A DNA stretch of 64,000 bases, from assembly GCA_030295235.1 (NCBI GenBank), contig AP026132.1, positions 310,001-374,000 of the forward strand. The letters run 5' to 3'. The notes beneath the pieces are model-generated. The model did not search any database and was not told where the DNA came from. It saw nothing but the letters and a program-made list of their open reading frames with translations. Below are positions 20,918 to 52,158 of this stretch, in pieces. Position 1 is the stretch's first letter, and every line of letters starts with the position of its first letter. This stretch comes from Fistulifera solaris (lineage: Eukaryota). Both the position numbers and the translations under genes were made by a program.

Positions 20918-23900
20918 TCAGTCATCGTATTCATCATCGTAGCTGCCATCTTCTTGGCTGTTGTAACTTTGTGATCCTTCTTCATCGTCGCGACTGTAAT
21001 AACTGCCGGATCCTTCTTCGTCGTCATCGTAATGATTTCCTCTGCTACTTTTGCTTCTAGACCCCTCTTCGTAGCTTTTAGAACCATCGTCATCGTAAGA
21101 GCCTTGTTCTCCGTCATCATAGCTTCGAGAGCCCTCTTCATCGTCGTAATAAGATCCTTCACCGTCTTCGTAGCTGCGAGACCCCTCTTCATCGTCGTAT
21201 TGAGATCCTTCGCCTTCTTCGTAGCTGCGAGAGCCCTCTTCATCGTCATAACGAGATCCTTCGCCTTCGTCGTAACTTCGCGAGCCGTCTTCGTCATCGT
21301 AATGAGATCCGTCGCCTTCTTCATAGCTGCGTGAGCCCTCTTCATTGTCGTAATGAGATCCTTCGCCCTCTTCGTAGCTACGAGAGCGCTCTTCATCGTC
21401 GTAACGGGACCCTTCGCCATCCTCGTAGCTGCGAGAGCCTTCTTCACCGTCGTAACGAGATGTTTCGCCATCGTCGTAGCTTCGTGAGCCCTCTTCATCG
21501 TCATAACGAGATCCTTCGCCATCCTCGTAGCTGCGAGAGCCTTCTTCATCGTCGTAGCGAGACCCCTCACCATCATTGTAGCTGCGGGAGCCCTCCTCGT
21601 CATCGTAACGAGATCCTTCGCCATCTTCGTAGCTGCGAGAGCCCTCTTCATCGTCAAAACGAGATCTTTCGGCTTCATCGTAACTCCGCGAGCCATCTTC
21701 ATAACTTCGCGAGCCATCTTCGTCATCGTAACGAGACCCTTCGCCTTCATCGTAGCTGCGAGAGCCCTCTTCGTCGTCATAATGAGACCCTTCGCCCTCG
21801 TCGTAGCTGCGAGAGTTTTCGTCGTCGTAACTCCTGGAATCATCCTGGCCATCATCGTCGTAAGAGCCCTCATCTTTCTGAGAATCGCCTTCTTCGTCGT
21901 AACTGTTGGCATCATCGCTATAACTTGCGGAGTAATCTTCGTCATTGTACTCGTTTTGTTCAAAAAGATCATCGGCAGTTCGTCGAATAGCATCCGCGTC
22001 TTCGTATCCGTAGTCTTTGTCGTCCACAACAGCGCTCCCTTCCTCACTCCTAAAATAGCTAGCCTCCTCACTGGCTTCCTCAGTGCGTGATTGGTCGTAG
22101 CTTCCAGATTGCTCATCGTCATCATACTCATCATCGTGGCTTCTTTCTTCGGAATAGCTGCCTTCGTCTGAATAGCTCCCCTCGTCCGAGTAACTACCTT
22201 CGTCCGAGTAACTGCCTTCATCTGAATAACTACCACTATAGTCTTCATCATCGTATTCATCTCCCATATTGGCCCCCAATGTACTAGCGGCAGCAATCGC
22301 AGCAGACCCATCTGTGCCTCCGGCAGTAAAATTTCGAGCTTCACGCTCGGGGATTCCCCTTGCTTTTGTGCACAGCCTTGCGTGCACGTTGGGTGGCCGA
22401 ACGCGCCGACATGGTTTGAAGAGTGTTGATGAGCTCTGTTTCCCGCCCCGCAAACTGGTCCAGCATGTTATCGATATTGTCGATTTCGTCGGGCACGCAC
22501 TGCTTGACAAGTTCCTCTACTTGCTTTCGATACTTCTCTCTACGTTTCATTTCTTGCGGAGTAAGGTTTGGTTGTGATCGAGAATCTGCTGTTTCGTCGT
22601 CGTCCGCCTGGCTTGATTCATCCTCGTCATCATTAGCCGAATATTGACTTCCATCATCTGTGATTTCGCCATTTCGGGATGTTTCCGCTTTCGTAGGAAC
22701 CGACAAATCATCAAATGCTTCAAAACCTCTAGCCGCTTCCATCACACCGTCCCAATCACCGCGATCGACCATTGCATCGAGATGACGCATATTTTCTGGT
22801 TGCACGGTTGTCGTGCGACTCACACCGTCGGTGCGGGAAAAATTGCCACTTTCATCATAGGTACTAGATTCACTTTCAGTATACTCGTTTTCATCGCTTG
22901 GGTCGGCGTCTTCTGTCGAAACTTCCTGAAAGCCCATGGCGTCAGCTTTCCCCATGCGTCTGTGTCGTTACTAACCCAGCCAAACACATCATCCGATTTC
23001 TTCAATTCGTCAGGGTCATCAAAAGCGTAGTTGGCAACATCTTCAACATTTTCGTCGAAATCTTTTTCATCGACTTGGAAGTCAAAATCCTTGTTGTCAT
23101 CAGAAGCTCCGGCTTTCTTTTTACCAACCAGACCACCGGTAGCTTTACCAACGACACCCAACCCTACGTCGCCGACTGTTTTAGTTCCCTTGATAGCTGT
23201 TTGACCTACTGTCTGCACACCTTTTACCACTTCTCCTCCTACAGTCAAAACACCCTTTTGTACACCTTGCACAAGAGTCCCTCCTAAACCGCCGAAAGCA
23301 TTGAGAACATTGCCAGTGGTCTTGTCCAGTGCACCACGCATACGGGATCGCTCTCGATCTTTTGATTTTTCAGCGGCAAATGTGCCAGTTACCGGGTCCT
23401 CTTCACTTTCCTCGTCGCTATCTGGGACCACAGTGTCAGGTTTGGCAAATAGACCACCATTATCAGAGTCATCAGACTCCTCTTCAAAACCAAAACCATT
23501 TTTTGATTTATTACCCGGTGCCCTCTCAGCTTCAGCGCCATCGTCACTACCATTTTCGGTAGCCTTGGCGGATTTTGTTTTCCCTTTAAAGTTGGAAAGG
23601 CGAGAAGAAATGGTCGAGAAATCCCCGCCCTCTGAAATGAAACGATAAATGCCATAACCTCCTGCCAGAGCTAAAACGATGCAAACACAAATGATGATGA
23701 TAATCTTCATTGGAGAGCCACCACCACCTCCGTTAACGGGCGTCAAAGGCTGATCAGAAGGCGGCGCGGCCGGCGGCGCAGGCGAGGCGTCACGCTTTTT
23801 TATGTCTGCTGTTCCGACAACACTTATCGTCACTGTATCATCAACCTCTTCTAGTAAGCCCTGTAAGGAATTGCCTTTGGTAAGAGCGGCCTGTGCATAC

Positions 23901-26263
23901 TTAGTCCAAGCATCCTGACGATCTTCATTAGCGAAGAGGACATCAAAAGCAGCATAAACAATAATACAAACTGTAGATTGTTCTGTGACCGTCTCCGGAC
24001 AATTCGTATCGACAACATCAAAGAAATCGATGGAGTCTTCAACGAGACCGGTGACTTGTACTCTTCTTTGATAACGCAAGTATCGTGTTGCCTCACCAGC
24101 AGTCGACTCTTTCAACGCTGCGAGCTCTTTAACGACCTGCTTGACAAACTGGTCGTAAGCAGAATCTAAGGCCCGGCGGTTTTTCCCAGATCGTAATGAT
24201 GCGGCACCCAAACCGGCCGAGTTCGCCAATATAAACGCATTGTAGATTGTTTGTACTTTAGGGTCAGCAGGCGAAGCGGTAGGACCAGTAGCCGTGGGCT
24301 CGCCACCAGGAGTTGGCGCTGATGGCGCAGCATCTCCTGAGATAGCTCTTGCGGTAGCTTCGCAGACATCTTCCAAAAACTTTTGCTGTTCTGCAGTGAC
24401 ATTGACTCCTCGAAGTGCACCTCTGATGTTTATAGACAAATCATCTTCATTTCCAGTAGCCAGCGCGAAAAAGTTATCTTTCAAAACTTTCGGAAGATCA
24501 TCAAAAGGATCTGTCAACGCGAATTCTTCGGTGTTTCGACTCAAGAAGCGCACATACTCTGACTGGTCCATTTTGCTGTCGCGGGACAGGTCAGCAATAA
24601 CCATATCCTGTTTACATGACTCAATATCAATCTCAACATCGGTTCCTCCTGGTGAAGCAGTCGGCGTACCCTCGCTATCTCCGGCAGCAGCTTCCGCGAT
24701 TGCTTTTTCCGTAGTGTCACAGACAAATTGAAGATTACTTTGTTGTTCATCTGTTCTTTCAGCATCAGTATTCCCTTCTACAGATATCATGTCACCCGCC
24801 GTGTTGCCGTTGGTGGATGTCAACGACGTAAATGCGTCTTTCAGCTCTTGTGCGAGCCCATCGTAAGTACCATAAAGTGCACGAATATCGATCTCTTCCT
24901 GGGGCAGTCGCGTCAGAAATATGAAATACTCTCTGTCGGACAAAAAACCATCCCGGGTAATATCGGATTGAGAGATCACCGATAAGCAATCTTCGAATGT
25001 AAACAGTTCCGCTGACTCTCCCGGAGAACTCGACGGCATCTCATCTCCACCTCCTGCCGCAGCATTCATCGCTGCTCTTGTATCATCACATATCTTCTGA
25101 ATGGAGCTGTCATCACCGTCCACAGAAAGCATGGTTCCGTCTCCATTGCTAACAACCAATGCATTGTAGCTATCTTGCAATGGCACTGGCAAACCGGCAA
25201 AATTAGCATACTCGCGGAAAAATCCATCTCCCACTCGATCCAGAAACAGAAAGTGTTCTCGTTTGTTCAATTTACCATCACGTGTGATGTCGGAAACCTG
25301 AAGATTGGATTTGCAAAAATCAAAATCAAAAGTGAATTGCCCACCACCTGGTGCCGGTGCAGCGACCGGAGCAGGAGCTGCTACAGGAGCCGGTGCAGCG
25401 ACCGGAGCAGGAGCTGCTACAGGAGCTGGTGCAGCAGCCGGAGCAGGGGCTGTTACAGGAGCTGGTGCAGCAGCCGGAGCAGGGGCTGTTACAGGAGCCG
25501 GTGCAACGACCGGAGCCGGTGCCGTTACCGGTCCGGCCACGGGAGGAGTTTCCCCGTCGCTATTTTGCGCGAAAATACTAGCCACTAACGTTTGCTGGCA
25601 TAAATTTTGAACAAATGCTTTTTGTTCTTCAGTAGCGTCGCGGTGCTGTGTTTTCCCTCCGTACACATCAATCGAACCGACACTCGGTTCCATGAAAAGT
25701 TCAAAGACGGCCTTCACGGGCCCTGGCAAGTCGACAAATGGTGTGGTTAAACCGTACAGCTCTCCCGACAAGCGATCGGCCAAGCGCGTGAACTCCAGCT
25801 CTCGATCTAATCGGTCGTCTCTTCCAATATCCGCCAGCGAGATGGCCAACAAACAATTTGTGCTCGTAAGCTCCAAGTCAGAGCCGCCGATAATCCCCGA
25901 GTAAATACCAGCGCAAGGTCCTGCTGCCGCCGCAACGTCCGTAATGGCCAGTGGGTCCTCGAACGCCTCTTGCAGTTCGGGCGGTAATGCGGCAAATTGT
26001 GCGACGGAGATCCCCGACAGCACTCGGATGGCTTCGACGAATTCTGCTTCGTTTAAGGATCCGCTGGCGTCGCTGTCGGCACCCTTCAATGCATCAAAAC
26101 ACGGAGCATAGGTCGTAGATGGGGGAAGCGGAGCCGCTGCTGCCGCACCGAAGAATGCCGGAAGAAGAAGCCAGGAACGTTTCCTCCGCCTCGAAATCCG
26201 GAGTTCGATGGGTTTGCTCTGCCATCTTCGCCGCCTTTTCTCTTCTGTACATCGCGGTATCAT
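20918..26263 (-). CDS. Giant (about 1780 aa) type-I membrane protein A: Cys-flanked EF-hand-like repeats, PAPVAA linker, SEA-like domain, TM, acidic Tyr-rich repeat tail; frameshifts near 22946 and 22345
   Basis: ORFs 22820-26263, 22341-22955 and 20918-22510 join end to end with continuous composition; TM IIIIICVCIVLALAGGYGIY; homology to the gene at 27573-31822. Confidence 0.75.
21080..21830 (-). repeat. Coding tandem repeat, 51-nt / 17-aa unit (SRSYEDGEGSRYDDEEG), about 13-14 copies
   Basis: Counted directly in the 20918-22510 translation; synonymous variation between copies. Confidence 0.92.
25352..25531 (-). repeat. Coding tandem repeat, 18-nt / 6-aa unit (PVAAPA), about 10 copies
   Basis: PVTAPA PVVAPA PVTAPA PAAAPA ... 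PVAAPA in the 1147-aa ORF. Confidence 0.92.
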
Positions 26264-27572
26264 TATTTCTTACTTCTAGTTTGAATGCTTCTCGTCCGAA
26301 CGAGGCGATGAAATAAATTGGAACTTGCCACAACAGGCAGCAAAAGCCCTTTCTATTACTATCTCTCTTTCAGCAAAATCACTTCTGCATTTTGCGGGGG
26401 AGGTAAAAAGGGGCACTTTTTCAACAAGGAATGGGATTGACACTTTCGAAGAGTGTGTCGGTTGAAACGATTAACCACCGTTTTCAACCAATCAAAAGCC
26501 TAAGCCTCAGTCTTGGTCACTGAATCACGAATTTCAGTACAAGCAACTGATTTTGAGTGCCGGATGTAGTAGTGGGTCTCTACTTTGTTTGTTAGTGTCG
26601 AAATGTCAAAGACATTTGTAAGTACACAATGAACCCCCAAAAGGTCTTTCATTTCTTGGCGAACGGAACGCCATTTTCTTTCATCAAAGGGTCGAATTAG
26701 GCGAGAGACGATGTTTTGGAAGACGTTGGAAGACGATGGGCGCGCACAACATTCCGTTCCATCACAGCAATTACCAGAGGCCTTGCTCTAGCTAAAAACA
26801 CATTAGGGCAGCAACTCGTCGAGTCAAACCGGTAGACCCTGGAGAAAGGTTTTGCACCGACAGATCGACGCCTTAGTTTGACACCACAAATTACAGGTTT
26901 TTATTGAAATAGACATAAAGCTCTAGAGCGAGCAATTAACACGCAATTCATTGCCATAAGCTCGAGACCTACTGGAAGAAAATTGCCTTTTGGTAGATCT
27001 TTTAGAGTCTCACTATTATGCATCCATCAAAGGACTCGCTGGGTTAAATGTTCGCAAAGCACATCTATGTAAATTAAGCTATCTCTAGAGAGGGCATCCA
27101 ATGGGTATTGGAGAGGGTCTTATTCAAAGAAATTTGCACGTTTCCCATCTTGTCGAGACATCTTAGGCAGGAAAGAGTCATAGTATCGTAGCGGTATCAT
27201 CTTCAGCCGCTGGCGTCAACGGCGGAGTTTTTTTCGGTCTTGTCGAAAATTGTGACCCGATTGACTTTTTTGGTTGAAGCACATCGGTATAAGCGCCATA
27301 GTGTGAGTACCACACTTCCAAATATTTAGGCATTTCGACGATTTTTACTAGGCACTCCAAGATTATTGCCCTTCTGGACCACGTCGCACAGTCTAGGGTC
27401 TAGCGACTGTATGGGAAGCTCCGACCAAGATCGAGCTTAAACTGTACATCGTACATTTGCCGAGGAACGACTAAAAACCTGATCTTCTATTCATTCCATC
27501 GTCGTCTTTATGCATGTTTGTTGTTGACATCCTAGAAAATTTACAAGCAAGAAGTTCTAAGACTGCTGCAAA

Positions 27573-30500
27573 ATGCCTTCTACCATGTCGTTCTGGGGTA
27601 AAAAGCGGAAGATCCCGCTTTGCTTATTGCTGTTAGCCCAGCTTTCTCATGCGCAATACATCAGCTGCCGAGAGACGCTGACGAGCGCGAATGGGGATGG
27701 CGACGCTACGTTACAGGCCGCCGAAATTCCAGGATTTGTCTTTCAACTCAGTTCCGGAATCGTGGATGCCGCTTCGGTCGATAGTTTACCTGTGCCTCTG
27801 CAAACCGTGTTCATTTCCCGGGCCAATTCCATCAACTTGCTAGGAATATTGGATCCGACGAATGCGGCGGCAGTTGTCGAATTAGACACGTTTTGTGATG
27901 ATGTCTATAACGCCTTGGGAGAGCATCTGGGGATTACCATAACGCAAAATGCTTGTATTGGAGCTCTCCAGACGGCGGATACCAGTCCAGGGAACGGTCG
28001 GGTCAGTTTCGAGCCGGAATTTCTCGCCTTTACTGCGAGTCTCGCCGGAACGGATTTTGGCGTCACGACGGCCGCCGAGTTGCCGGCCGGCCTGATTCGC
28101 GTCTTTGATGATTTTTCCGGCGGTACGGACGTGAAGAGCTCGGCTGGATTGGAGTATTTGGTTCAATTTTGTCAGCGAACGGCGCTGCAAGCGAAAATCG
28201 AGTTAGACAAACCCGACGTGCCGGCCACGACGGCACCGGCACCGGTGGCTTCCACCAGTCTACCGGTACCTCCAATGGTGGCTCCAACGTTAAGCCCTGT
28301 TGCTGCGTCTCCAATTCCACAGCCAACAACGCCGGCCCCCGTAGCGGTCGACTCGGAAAGTCCAGTAGCAGTGCCGACATCGACCGAATTTGTGCTGACC
28401 GATGACTTTTATGCCAGTTGCTTAACGAGTATGCAAGCATCCGATCAAAATGGAAACAATCTCATGGAAAGTTCGGAATATCCAGTTTTTATTGATGGAA
28501 TTTTGGAGGGCGCATATGCGGAAACACCCTTCGATGAATTAGACCCACTGTTCCAAACGGCTTTCAACGAAAACGCGGTAGTGAGAGAAAGCATCAATAT
28601 ATTTGGGGCAAAGCCAGGAGAGTCACCAGACGCAGATCAAACATCGTATCTACGGCAAGTTTGCTCCGCAGCGGGTCAAGCCGATCTCGATCTCGCTGGT
28701 GGAGAAACGACTCCGGTTCCTGCTCCGGCTGGATCGGAAACAACATCGCCAGCTCCCATGGCGCCAGGATTGGTGAGTCCGGAATGTCAGGCAGCGATTG
28801 AAGTCGGTGGATCATGGTCGCAAGATTCATATGCGCTCTTTGTGCAAAAGCTTGCACCCAGCTTGGACGGTGACTATGAAACGCTTCCTTACTTGCTACA
28901 GGACAACTACAAGTGGATCATGAACGGGGAGGAATCTATAATGATACCCGATACGCCTTATGGCGAGGCATACACTCGCTTCATATGCGACCGAACACAG
29001 AGGCTCATTGACCAGCCTGAAAAGGGTCAAACGATGGAAGAGCAATGTGCGATCGCTTTAAAGGTCGCTTCCAGTGACGGTTCAACTTTATCGCAGGACG
29101 AATACGTGGTCTTTTTTAAATCAGCTCTCAGGATTCGCATGGGAAGGAATACAATTTGACGCGTTAGACTTGCTCTTGCGAGACGTATTTGAGGAAAATG
29201 AAACAGAAGGGAAAGCCGTTGCAAGCTCGAATGAATTCTGCGTAGCGGTATCCCAAGCCCTCGAAGCTACGCGCAGTGACAATGCATTCTACCAACAGTG
29301 CACAATTTCGCTTATAGGGGCTAACACCGATCTCGACAGTAGCGTATCAACAGCGGAGTACGCAGAATTGTTTTCTGCACTTGATGGTGGCACAGATGAC
29401 GCGGCATTTGACGATCTTTCTGACAATGCAAGAGTAAATTATGAACTACTGGCCGAGGATAACGGCATACAAGTGCCAGGTCTCCTTGCACCAAACCGAA
29501 CTCAGGAAGAGTCGGAATCTCTGCGAGGATTGTGCGATAGCATCGAAGCAATCATAAATGTTCCCGACGATAGTGGGAATGCCACTCGCGTGACCGTATT
29601 TAACGCTTTTGTTCTGCAAAATGATTTGGGGTTCACACAGAGAGACATGGAGATAGGAGTACTACGAAATACCCTAGAAAGCGCCTACCGAAACTTTGTA
29701 ACAGCACAAGTGGCGAAGCTGGTCAAGCCCACAGGCGACCGACGGAAGCTCTCGGGTTCTGTCCTACTAGATGACACTATTCGACTGTATCGGTTCGAAG
29801 ACATTCAATGTCCAAGTGGAGCAAGCGGTAGTTGCCAAAGAGCTTATGGCTCATTTGACGTGGAAGCAAACCAGGACAACTCAATTCTCTCTAGTGAATA
29901 CTCATTAGCAACCCAGGCGGCAATCGATGATGGTGCATTACAAGACGAGGTCACCAAACTTGATCCAGATTTTGAGTTGGTCGTACATTCCTCGTCGGAA
30001 GTGTTGCGCCCTGATGAAGGGGTTTACCCTAGTGCTAGTACGGGAGAAAAAGACAACACTGTTCTTGTAAGCGTCTTGACTATTCTTTTCGGGGCCTTAT
30101 TTGGAATGCTCGGTGCAGCTGCAGTGGCCTATTACATTGTGCGGAATAACCTTCCTCCACTAGGAACTGAGACGAACGCAAGGAAGACAGACCCGGAGTT
30201 GGCTTTGTTTGATCATTTTGACACGAACGATAATGAGCAGCCAGAAGCGCCCACAGATGATCCTTATGGGAACCTTGCCGTGTTTAGCAAAACAACTCGA
30301 AGTGCAAGCAACAGGGATGCATCCGAGCGGAGCCAAAGTGAGCAATCTGAAGAGACCGGGTTTGATCGATATGCCCTTAGCGGCAAGGGAGAATAATAAT
30401 TTTAATTTTCCCGCTTCCCAAGCTACGGCTGACGAGCAAAGTGATGATGAAGAGAGTATTAACAGTGACGCCATGTTTCAAAAGGAAGAGATTACTTGGA

Positions 30501-31822
30501 GCAACAACTCTCCAATCAGATCTCCGGTAGATCAACGCGGGAGGGAAGGGGAGGCAGATCCACGAATCACCAGCCCTAACCAAAATCAGTTTGAAAATGG
30601 AATTGACGACCATTCGGACAACGGCGGCGACGATCTCGAACCGATGCAATATGGAGCGTTAAAGCAACCTACCTCGCCTTTACGTCAACAAGCAGGGTTG
30701 CAACAGGAAGAATCGGATCAAGCGGGATCATCAGCATTGAACGCATCGCATTCCAATTCTGAATACGAGCTTCAAGATCTTGAGGACGAAATTCATGATG
30801 TTGATACGATGCAAATGACATCACGACCCGATAACGACGAAGAATATTCGGTGGAAGTTCAAGAAGAAGAATTTTCGGAGGAAATTCAAGAGGAAGAATT
30901 ATCCGAAGAAGTACAAGAGGAAGAGTTCTCGGAGGAAGTGGTTGAGGAAGTGGTCAGCGAGTCTGAAGTCGACGAGGAAGAGACCGACGACGAGGGCGCG
31001 ACTGAGGACGAACGAGGCACCGCTGCAGATGATGTACAAAGTGGCGGAAGCAGTCAAGACCAAGCTGATATGGAAGACGAGAGCGAAGAAGGAGAAGACA
31101 ACGAAGAAGAAAAAAGCGAACCCGAAGAAAGCGAGGAACCCGAAGATGATGATGAAAGTGACGGTGACACGGAAAACGATAACGCGGAAGCAAAGCCTCC
31201 TTACCGAGATGAGATTGCGGCCTTGATGCAACAGGTCATGCCCGACGAAATGGAAAACCTTGACGCAATGCTCGAACAATTTTCTGGAAGGGAAGATGAA
31301 CTACTTGAGACTCTTGAAAACATGGTAAATGCCGGCAGTGATGACGAAGATGATGAAGATTACTCAGAAGAAGGCGAGGACGCAGAGCAAAGCGAAGATG
31401 ATGAAGAGGAAGATGATGACGAGGATCAGGAAAGAGAATTGGGGTCAGAGGAAGAAGAGGAACGTGAAGATGAAGAGGAGGAGGAGGAAGAGGAGGAGAA
31501 CAGTAAGGCAGCCGCGAGCGAAAGTGAAGAAGAAGAAAGCGACGCTGCTGAAAGCGAAGGAGAAGAGACCGCATCCGGCGCAAGCGAAGAAGAAGACGAA
31601 TCTGAATCCGAAGCAGCCGCAAGTGAAGAAGAAGAATCCGAATCGGAAGGAGCTGAAAGCGAAGAAGAGGAACAATCAGAGGCAGCCAGCGAAGAGGAGT
31701 CGGAAGCAGAAGAAAGTGAGGAAGAGGAATCGGAAGAAGCCAGCGAAAGTGAATCCGAGGAAGAAACGGAAGCTCCAGAAGCGAGTGATAGCGATGACAG
31801 CGATGACAGTGACAGCAGTTAA
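27573..31822 (+). CDS. Giant (about 1410 aa) type-I membrane protein B, paralog of A: signal peptide, Cys-flanked EF-hand-like repeats, SEA-like domain, TM, Glu/Ser/Asp-rich tail; frameshifts near 29115 and 30390
   Basis: Signal peptide ...LCLLLLAQLSHA; TM VLVSVLTILFGALFGMLGAAAVAYYIV; blocks shared with A (TVFNAFVLQN/TIYNAFILAN, ESAYRNFV/DSAYDQFV, MPDEMENLDAMLEQFSGREDEL/VPDEIDNIDNMLDQFAGRETEL). Confidence 0.78.
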
Positions 31823-32069
31823 TAAAAGGGGAAGTAGAAGTTTCCCTAGTATGTAAAATTACGATTTCCATAGAGATTTCTTTTATTATCTTTTAACTCT
31901 CATGCCAGCCTTAATTCTCATTGTTTGGTACCCTAGACATTTTGTGTCACGTAAATCGAGTCCCGAATCATTGCCGGACCTTTTATTAACGATAGAAATT
32001 TCGTCATTGTTTATCGTCAATAACTCATGGCTTTCTCTTTCATTCATGTAAAAAGACGCAGGAGCGACC

Positions 32070-32678
32070 ATGTTCTATCGAGCATCCTTCTTCGTTGCCG
32101 CCGTATGGATCCTGAGATCCGTGCAGGGACTCAGCTTTTTAACTCAACGTTCTTCGTCAACGAACTATGACTTACTGGTTGATTCATCGAGGCGTACATT
32201 TTTGCAAATTGCTCCTTGTCTTCTTTTTCCTCAATTTACCAATGCCGCCATGGAAAATAAACAGACTGTGTTCCGAGAGGGAGAGTCGTTAACGATTGAA
32301 GAAGCCACTGCGCGATTTCAGGAAGCGCGAAAATCATTGAACAATTTGCTGGAAAACTACGACGCCATTGCGGCGAATGGCGGAGACAATGTTCGACGTT
32401 ATTTGGGGACGGTAGGCACTACCTCCGGCTTATATGGTATTCAAAAGGTGTTGCGGACGTTACAAGATGAAGCAAACGATATCGTGGAGTATACGGAAAG
32501 TTTGAGTGACTTTGAATACTATCTGAGTGCAGCAGACACGGCAGCCTATTCTGCCATATTCGTGGAATATTCCGCTGCGAAAACGAAACCCGAGCAGTTC
32601 TTTGCCGATGCAAACAAAGCCGTGCAACGAATGAGAGCTTGTATGGACCAGATGGCACAAGAATTGGCTCTTCAATAA
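32070..32678 (+). CDS. Putative thylakoid-lumen protein (tripartite presequence; helical, possibly PsbQ-like)
   Basis: Signal peptide, Ser/Thr-rich transit peptide, twin-arginine SRRTFL, hydrophobic stretch and TNA-A cleavage site; helical mature part with GGDNVRRYLGTVG. The PsbQ-like call is inference. Confidence 0.6.
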   Translation: MFYRASFFVAAVWILRSVQGLSFLTQRSSSTNYDLLVDSSRRTFLQIAPCLLFPQFTNAAMENKQTVFREGESLTIEEATARFQEARKSLNNLLENYDAIAANGGDNVRRYLGTVGTTSGLYGIQKVLRTLQDEANDIVEYTESLSDFEYYLSAADTAAYSAIFVEYSAAKTKPEQFFADANKAVQRMRACMDQMAQELALQ

Positions 32679-32790
32679 AACACAAGATCATCTGAAAAAT
32701 CGTTTTTGAGCCATGGCGTATAAATCAGCTACAAACTGCTTTCATTACAGTATTTCGTTCAAAGCGTAAGTGCTTGCGAGTAAAGTAACC

Positions 32791-33396
32791 TCAGTTCAAA
32801 GGCTTAATGCGCACAATCGCTTCCACCTCCACGGAAATGTCGAGGGGTAAACTATTCGTACCGATTGCGGATCTAGCATGTAGACCTCGTTCTTCTCCGA
32901 AGACTTCTTTCATCAGATCCGAGCATCCATTTAAAACTTTATGTTGTTCATGAAAGTCGTTGCTCGATTGCACAATCCCAAATAGTTTGACAATTTGTTC
33001 GACTCGATCCAAATCGCCACCGAGTTCCTTTTGTAAGGTCGCAATTAAATTCAAACCACACTGACGGGCTGCCGCATAACCATGGTCGAGGTTATGTTCC
33101 GAACCGATGGATCCAGTCATCAAAGAGCCATCTTCGAGCATAGGCAGATGCCCCGACAGAAACAGCAAATCACCCGACGACTGGACGGGGACGTAATTTG
33201 CGGCGGCTTTGGGTGCTGGTGGGAGCGTGATTCCCAGCTCTCGCAGCCTAATTTCCGTATGTACCATTGATAGTGCAGTGACAGTAGTAAAGGGCGTGTT
33301 GGGAAAGAAGGCGGCTGATGAAAATTCCATGGTAAATGAAGTGCGTGTTGCGCAAAGAAACATAAAAAGATCGCAGCTAAGTGACGTCATAACCAA
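32791..33396 (-). CDS. RidA/YjgF/YER057c/UK114 family protein; core starts near 33267, N-terminal extension uncertain
   Basis: RLRELGITLP, ANYVP, LFLSGHLP, AARQCGLN, QHKVLNGCSDL, HARSAIG and LPLDISVEVE motifs. Confidence 0.9.
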   Translation of the reverse strand: MVMTSLSCDLFMFLCATRTSFTMEFSSAAFFPNTPFTTVTALSMVHTEIRLRELGITLPPAPKAAANYVPVQSSGDLLFLSGHLPMLEDGSLMTGSIGSEHNLDHGYAAARQCGLNLIATLQKELGGDLDRVEQIVKLFGIVQSSNDFHEQHKVLNGCSDLMKEVFGEERGLHARSAIGTNSLPLDISVEVEAIVRIKPLN

Positions 33397-33559
33397 GAAA
33401 CACCTTACGCTTCAATCACGCTAAAGACTAACAACACCTCTATGTAACGAAGAACACAACACCGCTTGAACCTAGGAAATTGAAATATCGCCATATAAGA
33501 ATTGCATGCAAGCAGTTTCACGACGACATAGCGTACAAGGAGTGTTTACATTGTCACAT

Positions 33560-50873: not shown

Positions 50874-52158
50874 ATGGATAGTGAGGAGGATCAACTTTCT
50901 GCTCAAGAACAAGGCAAACCAGAAGATGATTCGGGCGAGGTGCAAGGGTCCTTAGGAATGCGTCCGGTATTCTTGGGCAATCTCGTCCCCAACTTTTCCA
51001 CCGATGATCTCAAAGATATCTTTGAGAAGCCCGTTCAGCCCAAGCCTGATAAATCCTACGAACCCATCCCTGTGGATCGCGTGGATCAAAAACGGGGTTA
51101 CTGCTTTATCTTTCTGAAGGACGCAACCTCTCCAGCCGACAAAGCGAGAGTCGAAGACTTCATCTCGGATCTCAACGGAATGTAAGCAACATATCTACTT
51201 CTTCTTCTACGTGATTGTTGACTACCTTCGCTACACTACTTCTTCTGGTGGCTTTTCTTCATTTTAAAACTCCTCCATTCACAGCGTACCTACTGTCTTA
51301 CTGCGCTCTCTTCCTCTTTCGCTACGCCCTTCGTCATCGGCCTTCTGCTGCGTTGCACTGACTCTTTCTTTTTTCTCTGCTTGTTTCTACTTACAACAAC
51401 ATCAGGGATATCCCCAACGTATCCAAGGCTCTTCGCGTCGAATTCGCTCGTGGAGATGGCCGTGTCAAGCGCAAGGAAGATGAGCGTCGCAAGAATATTG
51501 AGCCTTCGGACACGTTGTTTGTCGTCAATTTTCACGAAGAAACGACGCGCCAAGAAGATCTGGAGTTTTTATTTCAGCCCTTCGGAGAGCTTCTGCGTAT
51601 CGATATGAAGCGCAACTACGCCTTTGTGCAGTTCAAGACGATCGAACAGGCGACAAAGGCGAAAGAGACGACGAATGGAGGGAAACTGGATCAAGCCGTC
51701 TTGACGGTGGAGTATGTAGCGCGTCAACGAGACAGCAATAATAACAACAATAGAAGACGCCGAGACCGCGGGGACGATCGTCGTCACGGCCGCAACGATC
51801 GTATGGATACCCGCCGTCGTCTCGATCCGGGGCCGCCTCGGCATTATCGCAGGGACAGCCCTCCTCCGTACCGAGGAGGTCGTCGCAGTCGTAGTCGATC
51901 GCGGTCTCCTCCCTACCGACATGGTTACCGCTCGAGGTATGTGTCCTACTTATTTGATGTCTTTTGTGTACATTCATTCTCAAATTTCGCTTGATTTTCA
52001 GGAGCCCTCCCCGTGGCCGCTACGAAGACCGTTATGATGACTTCCGAGACCGACGTGGACCTAGCCCTCCACCTTACAGGGGTCGTAGTCCGGACCGGGA
52101 CCGTGGTCGTGACTTTTATCGCGATGATCGCGAACGAGACCGTGGTTATCGTGGATAA
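50874..52158 (+). CDS. SR-family splicing factor with two RRMs and an RS domain; introns 51182-51405 and 51937-52001
   Basis: RRM1 RPVFLGNL...KRGYCFIF...LRVEFAR; RRM2 TLFVVNF...RNYAFVQF...LTVEYV; RSRSRSRSPP tail; both splices keep the frame. Confidence 0.9.

Follow-up and report, generated by a model that had tools for sequence, protein, structure and literature searches.

Two large genes that start close together on opposite strands raise the question of whether they have been kept side by side because their products work together, or whether they are simply old relatives that have remained neighbours. Such a pair is found in the diatom Fistulifera solaris (NCBI GenBank assembly GCA_030295235.1, contig AP026132.1), within the 64,000-nucleotide (nt) stretch at positions 310,001 to 374,000, which we refer to as the window (GC content ~48%) and in whose coordinates positions are given. 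Gene A runs on the minus strand from its ATG at 26263 to a stop codon finishing at 20918, and gene B on the plus strand from its ATG at 27573 to a stop codon finishing at 31822. The original prediction, made from the letters of the window, described the two as a head-to-head pair of giant membrane proteins of common architecture, derived from an old inverted duplication, whose retained divergent linkage would suggest co-regulated subunits of a heteromeric Ca2+-dependent surface or vesicle complex. The head-to-head layout stands as described, the two starts being ~1.3 kb (1309 bp) apart; the proteins are indeed large (1781 and 1415 amino acids (aa)), and "giant" is a generous word for them.

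The explanation that we favour is that A and B are intact, divergently placed genes for type I membrane proteins of a diatom family, with a role as anchors or receptors. Taken as a whole, we consider this explanation somewhat better than an even bet; its structural and evolutionary part is highly probable, and its functional part is held only tentatively.

Correction of the reading frames

The two genes and the region between them are laid out as follows.

Gene A: 20918..26263, minus strand, one intronless open reading frame (ORF) of 1781 aa with two read-supported corrections; clade I, "A-type"
Gene B: 27573..31822, plus strand, one intronless ORF of 1415 aa with two read-supported corrections; clade II, "B-type"
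Spacer from the ATG of A to the ATG of B: 26264..27572, 1309 bp

Read without correction, the window splits each gene into three stop-to-stop ORF pieces that overlap (minus strand for A, plus strand for B), an appearance that would suit a region of decaying pseudogenes or of several short genes. Comparison with contigs of four public runs from two studies (coded X1–X4; some are guessed to be RNA, others are DNA-like) locates the following single-base differences.

22356: one homopolymer base too many, left out in X1, X2 and X3; gene A
22949: one homopolymer base missing (a C put in, X1–X4); the correction joins A ORF pieces 1 and 2
29112: one extra T in a run of T (X1, X2, X4); breaks B within repeat 5
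30387: one G too many (X1–X4); the correction joins B ORF pieces 2 and 3
26396 and 26987: homopolymer differences between window and read contigs in the spacer

Every run that covers a break contradicts the window (3, 4, 3 and 4 runs at 22356, 22949, 29112 and 30387, respectively), and single-base homopolymer differences total 6 in the 11.9 kb from 20500 to 32400, 4 of them within coding sequence. The split of A and B into pieces is thus due to four 1-base homopolymer errors in the window, and the pieces, whose standing as separate genes would have spoken against the original prediction, are neither genes nor exons. The error at 22356 breaks the frame of A just past its three-helix motif (see below), at a place where the Nitzschia homologue reads through, and both A breaks lie within a single 2570-nt X3 contig (21717–24286) that has no joint. 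When the four 1-base changes are applied to the window by script, A becomes one ORF of 1781 aa and B one ORF of 1415 aa, the latter identical to a deposited protein of equal length (P0164) except at 2 of the 1415 residues. The similarity of homologues continues straight across the breaks in A. Family members on metagenome contigs are likewise single ORFs (1322–1908 aa), and for this reason the genes are read as intronless. Since the four breaks vanish in contigs of 3–4 independent runs, including DNA-like runs that cover the spacer, we give the reading as pseudogenes or short genes practically no credence.

Two candidate introns, a 50-nt GT..AG intron in A (22975–22926) and a 43-nt intron in B (~30337–30379), were ruled out, the read contigs showing a 1-base indel and no joint in either case. 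The sole joint in the stretch is an in-frame skip of 72 nt in an X3 contig (25381–25454, ends TA..GT); this skip, which falls in the Pro/Ala/Val repeat of A, is probably an allelic or assembly-collapsed variant in repeat length, not an intron. Gene models taken from the present assembly need read-based correction; left as they are, they will contain spurious frameshifts and spurious short introns.

Shared architecture of the two proteins

The corrected genes encode proteins of a common build (viz. a signal peptide, 5–6 EF-hand-like repeats, an alpha/beta domain, one transmembrane (TM) segment, and an acidic tail with a three-helix motif). The parts of gene A, all on the minus strand, are:

24293..26128, minus: ectodomain with 5 EF-hand-like repeats (aa 46–114, 127–243, 307–418, 415–538, 539–657)
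25346–25534, minus: Pro/Ala/Val linker (36-nt unit x4.9)
23789..24265, minus: membrane-adjacent alpha/beta (SEA/MAD-like) domain (aa 667–825)
24059–24079, minus: loop with the invariant Arg of the family, reading R-R-V (24059–24067)
23636..23728, minus: TM segment (aa 846–876)
22704–22793, minus: two further conserved helices
22355..22544, minus: cytosolic three-helix motif (aa 1241–1303), the best conserved part of the family
20921..22246, minus: acidic Gly/Ser/Tyr-rich tail, with 51-nt (17-aa) tandem repeats x11.4 at 21120–21702

Those of gene B, all on the plus strand, are:

27633..29598, plus: ectodomain with 6 repeats (aa 21–122, 119–223, 272–386, 413–490, 481–569, 564–675)
29587..30000, plus: membrane-adjacent domain (aa 672–809), with R-R-K-L at 29740–29751
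30055..30141, plus: TM segment (aa 828–856)
31196..31333, plus: cytosolic helix motif (aa 1208–1253)
31334..31819, plus: poly-Glu/Ser tail

Each protein has a hydrophobic N-terminal segment (a signal peptide by hydropathy only) and a single TM segment, and both are predicted to be large type I membrane proteins (N-terminus outside, C-terminus inside). Behind the TM segment, A has a tail of 905 residues (Asp plus Glu 30%) and B one of 559 residues (39%). The common architecture at low identity seen in the original prediction is borne out by matches in three separate regions, viz. the repeats (BLASTP E=6e-18, 24% identity over 557 columns), the pre-TM domain (E=5e-14, 26% over 292 columns) and the cytosolic motif (E=5e-13, 48% over 44 columns), these E-values being those of single pairwise comparisons. 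Judged by these sequence matches, the paralogy of A and B is well beyond chance. No third family member was found in the 64-kb window by tblastn.

The repeats are ~110 aa long and have a conserved Cys at both ends; a profile built from repeats of the family finds 5 of them in A and 6 in B, and Pro/Thr/Ala-rich linkers lie between the repeats and the membrane-adjacent domain. Their 12-residue loop has the family consensus D-L-N-R-D-D-L-L-D-E-E-E, which is the ligand pattern of the EF-hand, with ligands at positions 1, 3, 5, (7), 9 and 12 and Glu or Asp at the last of these. The strict EF-hand loop pattern is present in 4 of the 5 repeats of A and in 1 of the 6 of B, where the loops are more degenerate. 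The best match of A to the Pfam EF-hand entries (PF00036 / PF13499) scores 18.9 bits, below the gathering cut-off of 25.4, and weak EF-hand matches occur in 5 of 13 relatives (best E 8.2e-5), none of them shown above the cut-off. An AlphaFold2 model of A 540–880 (51 aligned sequences; mean predicted local distance difference test (pLDDT) score 85) presents the repeat as four helices forming an EF-hand-pair-like unit, and the juxtamembrane part as a beta-alpha-beta-beta-beta-alpha-beta sandwich, ferredoxin/SEA-like, followed by the TM helix. The labels EF-hand-like and SEA-like in the original prediction appear to hold at the level of the modelled fold. Unlike canonical EF-hand proteins (e.g. 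troponin C, centrin, CBP40 and EH domains), the repeats of A and B are extracellular, are bracketed by two Cys and have one canonical loop each.

For the membrane-adjacent domain, Pfam SEA gave no match when 6 window pieces were searched at E<=1, 10 relatives at E<=0.1 and 13 members at E<=5. The SEA autoproteolysis site G/S-V-V-V (the slash marking the cut), which in SEA domains stands between strands 2 and 3, is absent in A; B reads G-S-V-L-L. We reject the latter as a SEA cleavage site: S-A-I-V-L-L takes its place in a relative 83% identical to B, and the 51 sequences vary in this column.

The same domain carries a loop (pLDDT 55–70) in which one Arg is invariant (51/51 aligned sequences) and is often flanked by further basic residues. 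Two positions after this Arg, 48 of the 51 have Leu and 2 have Met; the single Val is that of A itself.

On the cytosolic side, the AlphaFold2 model of a tail piece of A (P0003, 208 aa) has a three-helix unit at 137–201, most of which scores pLDDT >95, besides two helices at 58–86; the motif of ~65 aa is confidently folded, and the acidic tail around it is modelled as mostly disordered. A structure search with this unit returned generic three-helix bundles only. Foldseek against the PDB gave nothing at E<=1e-3, a PDB sequence profile search gave nothing significant, and ESM Atlas gave no usable match for P0003. A further lead, that the motif is CUE/UBA-like, was rejected, CUE/UBA being absent from Pfam matches at E<=5 in 13 members and from the top 50 rows of the structure search. 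Prediction of a complex between A (P0003 128–208) and B (P0006 335–400), run without controls or supplied alignments, scored 0.00 and gives no verdict.

A diatom-wide family and the age of the duplication

Searches with HMMER of 1.84 billion cluster representatives place the two proteins in a family that counts 303 proteins at a cut-off of E<=1e-3; 138 of these pass a cut-off of 1e-10, and 69 pass one of 1e-30. The family signature consists of a juxtamembrane C-P...C with R-x-L and a cytosolic P-D-E...Q-F-x-G-R-E-x-E-L...T-L. The cytosolic motif is present in 90 of 161 collected sequences, almost always ~200–400 residues behind a single TM segment. Both A and B carry all the parts of the family (viz. 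repeats, juxtamembrane domain, TM segment and cytosolic motif), A with Val for the Leu of R-x-L.

Named sources of family members are diatoms only, and include Fistulifera solaris, Nitzschia inconspicua, Mayamaea pseudoterrestris, Epithemia clementina, Amphora coffeaeformis and Seminavis robusta, as well as the araphid Thalassionema nitzschioides and the centric Corethron. The deposited homologues listed here have the same architecture as A and B and are true family members:

FisN_38Lh004, Fistulifera solaris (83% identical to B)
IV203_029398, Nitzschia inconspicua
MPSEU_001084100 and MPSEU_001084200, Mayamaea pseudoterrestris
ACA910_021996, Epithemia clementina
Sro71_g039210, Seminavis robusta
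A0A7S3LAC7, Amphora coffeaeformis

Their annotations are "hypothetical" or "EF-hand domain-containing" only, and none has been characterised. We found no paper on the family by keyword or by six member identifiers (the Epithemia and Amphora accessions not among them), supplementary tables being outside this search; proteome or expression tables in such supplements may list members. A and B thus appear, from these searches, as members of a large, diatom-wide, unnamed and unstudied family.

A FastTree phylogeny (88 rows, 465 columns) was made from sequences having the motif and a TM segment at least 330 residues from the N-terminus (89 of 167), with the public twin of B dropped. In this tree, A falls in a clade of 33 rows (clade I, support 96) with Gly/Ser/Tyr-rich acidic tails, and B in a clade of 27 rows (clade II, support 99) with poly-Glu tails; a third clade includes Nitzschia. 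An IQ-TREE analysis of 48 chosen rows (linked pairs, named members and representatives) recovers both clades, with Shimodaira–Hasegawa-like approximate likelihood ratio supports of 90 and 92. Forcing A, B and the close relative of B into one clade costs 79.5 log-likelihood units (p = 3.6e-5 in the approximately unbiased test), the constrained group having been named after the tree was seen, and being the natural hypothesis all the same. A recent duplication is rejected by this result and, as A and B also lie in separate clades of many members, the duplication that gave rise to them is ancient. In this respect, the "old" of the old inverted duplication is upheld.

Linkage and orientation in other diatoms

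A scan of metagenome contigs yielded 31 loci of the family, 10 of them longer than 8 kb. In one of these (L001), an A-type gene (6905–11488) and a B-type gene (12892–18555) lie on one strand, head-to-tail and 1.4 kb apart. In Mayamaea, an A-type gene (MPSEU_001084200) and a B-type gene (MPSEU_001084100) have consecutive locus tags on one contig of 205,489 bases. Three further clade I/II pairs share both source and exact base count:

ENA, 20,690 bases: P0012 and P0086
Logan, 12,096 bases: P0014 and P0037
JGI, 21,404 bases: P0169 and P0122

Each of these pairs probably sits on one contig. Linked partners also occupy matching positions in the tree, A grouping with P0012 and B with P0086, and the Mayamaea proteins grouping with the Logan pair in both clades. 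The linkage of A-type and B-type genes, as read from these contigs and trees, is old and often kept, and its orientation is not conserved, the two pairs that can be read being head-to-head in the window and head-to-tail in L001.

No family member was found within 7 kb upstream or 9 kb downstream of the A-type gene in L002, or within 5 kb upstream or 7 kb downstream of the B-type gene in L026, and no second member lies near the third-clade gene in L003. L025 is a second copy of the B-type gene of L001 with 1.3 kb upstream only. In L004, L013, L019, L027 and L028, no second member is present in such flank as they have, and these loci were excluded from the linkage reading.

Further information comes from the genes around the pair. 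In the window, these include:

2368–3777, plus strand: apyrase (Pfam E 5e-97)
18087–19259, minus strand: glycosyl transferase family 3, anthranilate phosphoribosyltransferase-type (Pfam E 3e-86)
19585–20829, plus strand: LRR protein (Pfam)
32791–33411, minus strand: RidA/YjgF protein (Pfam E 2e-21)
51362–51994, plus strand: RRM protein (Pfam)

None of these neighbours has an obvious functional relation to A or B. Positions 16590–17604 of L002 match 32246–33249 of the window, which hold an unnamed ORF and the RidA/YjgF gene that follow B; in L002 the same two follow the A-type gene with no B-type gene between. L002 retains the genes that flank B here, which indicates that, in L002, B has disappeared from this site or been relocated. 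Positions 3281–4393 of L026 match 50877–51751 of the window, i.e. the RRM gene, which is 19 kb from B here and head-to-head with the B-type gene there. The neighbourhood is thus shared by the window, L002 and L026, in a reshuffled order.

These observations bear directly on the proposal that A and B are co-regulated subunits of a heteromeric Ca2+-dependent surface or vesicle complex and that the spacer is a selected bidirectional promoter. The proposal gains from the presence of A-type and B-type genes as neighbours in the window, in L001, in Mayamaea and probably on three more contigs, from partners that match in two clades, and from a linkage that has lasted despite an otherwise reshuffled local gene order. 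The orientation in L001 tells against it, for the retention cannot then be that of a shared divergent promoter, as do the lone genes of L002 and L026, and linked tandem duplicates of great age require no functional coupling. We consider the proposal unlikely. Of the "retained divergent linkage", it is the linkage that is retained and not the divergence; the comparison of orientation in other diatoms, which was to support it, yielded as its only other readable pair the head-to-tail one. The reading of divergence as a sign of a shared bidirectional promoter is therefore not supported, for orientation varies and partners are missing within 5–9 kb in two loci.

The history that we favour begins with an ancient tandem duplication whose copies remained linked; A (or B) would later have been inverted in the present lineage, producing the head-to-head layout and its 1.3-kb spacer. 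Given the head-to-tail pair in L001, this is a simpler history than the inverted duplication of the original prediction.

Spacer and transcription

The spacer holds no ORF of at least 100 aa and no Rfam family or tRNA, and its repeats are short 2- or 3-copy units of 14–16 nt only, none of them notable. Inside it lies a low-depth X3 contig (depth 6.7) at 26420–26818, which could be a long 5' untranslated region (UTR) of A, a transcript without annotation or carried-over DNA; in the first of these cases, the upstream region that is truly shared would be less than ~750 bp.

Within 31820–31845, the stop codon of B is overlapped by an AATAAA, and ~20 nt past it an X4 contig runs into a terminal poly(A) stretch, from which it follows that B is transcribed and polyadenylated and that its 3' UTR is very short. 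The 14 letters of the contig just ahead of the poly(A) stretch are not quite those of the window, and the contig may represent an allele or a second gene copy. Contigs of the runs guessed as RNA cover A without gaps. Both observations are in line with the heteromer proposal; X3 and X4 have no cover over 26852–27645 and their contig depth is unequal between A and B, features that cannot rank genes and count neither for nor against co-expression.

Possible functions of the A-type and B-type proteins

R-x-L, as read in the loop with the invariant Arg, is described as the processing motif of diatom wall proteins (PMC5647440), and its invariance in the membrane-adjacent domain suggests to us that this domain undergoes proteolytic processing. 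If the loop is a cleavage site, A, with R-R-V, may be processed differently from its relatives.

The known proteins closest to A and B in overall build are type I receptors whose membrane-adjacent domain is SEA or SEA-like, viz. dystroglycan, Notch (its HD) and MUC1/MUC16. In dystroglycan and Notch, cleaved SEA-like domains are described as keeping the two receptor halves together (bioRxiv 10.1101/279315). Protocadherin-15 and cadherin-23, with their Ca2+-binding repeats, membrane-adjacent domain (MAD12/MAD28) and TM segment, have an analogous layout. Cadherin repeats are beta-sandwiches, whereas those of A and B are modelled as four-helix EF-hand-like units, and the likeness is one of analogy, not homology.

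We infer that A and B act as anchors between wall or matrix and cytoplasm. Like cadherins, dystroglycan or membrane mucins, each would serve as an anchor or receptor at the cell surface (or on an endomembrane), extending into the wall or mucilage a stalk that is stiffened by Ca2+ and probably glycosylated. Maturation would include a cut in the membrane-adjacent domain, at the exposed Arg-x-Leu loop, after which the halves would be held together non-covalently as in SEA, dystroglycan and Notch HD domains; a conserved partner in the cytoplasm would be bound through the three-helix motif. A and B would then be parallel specialised versions, not obligate subunits of each other.

A different placement is suggested by the silicalemma, the membrane of the silica deposition vesicle. 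The silicalemma-associated proteins (SAPs) TpSAP1–3 of Thalassiosira pseudonana are presented as a diatom-specific type I family defined by its layout and not by identity; they have RXL motifs and, on the cytoplasmic side, a conserved domain for which contact with partners in the cytoplasm is proposed (PMC5647440). If A and B were SAP/silicanin-like proteins of this membrane, their N-terminal part would be lumenal, cut at R-x-L and left in the wall, and while a valve or girdle forms the tail would link the vesicle to the cytoskeleton. The present family follows the logic of the TpSAPs (type I proteins confined to diatoms, paralogues of low identity, RXL sites and a conserved domain on the cytoplasmic side); A and B also match the SAPs in their signal peptide (by hydropathy), single TM segment and long N-terminal part, R-x-L is invariant, and members occur in the centric Corethron and the araphid Thalassionema, as a role in wall formation predicts. 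The SAPs, compared here by description only, are however much smaller proteins with a Ser-rich lumenal tract and a conserved domain of 28 aa directly behind the TM segment (PMC5647440). The motif begins 365 aa behind the TM segment in A and 352 aa in B, which thus lack the defining feature of the SAPs, and their ectodomains consist of folded repeats with an overall Ser plus Thr content of 14% (A) and 16% (B) and 2 KxxK each. On balance, a silicalemma role seems quite unlikely to us.

Current models of gliding draw unnamed "transmembrane components" between adhesive strands and actomyosin (PMC11962607). It is conceivable, at a very low probability, that an A-type/B-type pair provides such coupling in pennates, from the extracellular matrix (wall or raphe adhesive strands) to the cortical cytoskeleton. 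In an equally speculative form of this idea, the proteins, cut at R-x-L within the SEA-like domain into two halves held non-covalently as in dystroglycan or Notch, would be force-sensitive, Ca2+-stiffened tethers whose three-helix tail module recruits a motor or adaptor, the paralogues being linked because both are needed. The occurrence of members in araphid and centric diatoms weakens the idea.

Significance

The head-to-head layout that drew attention to this locus is itself ordinary and is not conserved. What is of lasting value is a large, unstudied, receptor-like diatom family, the invariant loop motif of that family, and the long-kept linkage of its two old subfamilies. The build of the family converges on that of animal adhesion receptors and mechano-receptors, and is reached with different parts. 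Diatoms have a rigid silica wall and secreted mucilage that must be coupled to the cytoplasm and, to our knowledge, very few transmembrane links are known in these organisms (SAPs, silicanin). The A-type and B-type proteins and their relatives are thus concrete candidates for wall–cytoskeleton coupling, adhesion or morphogenesis in diatoms.

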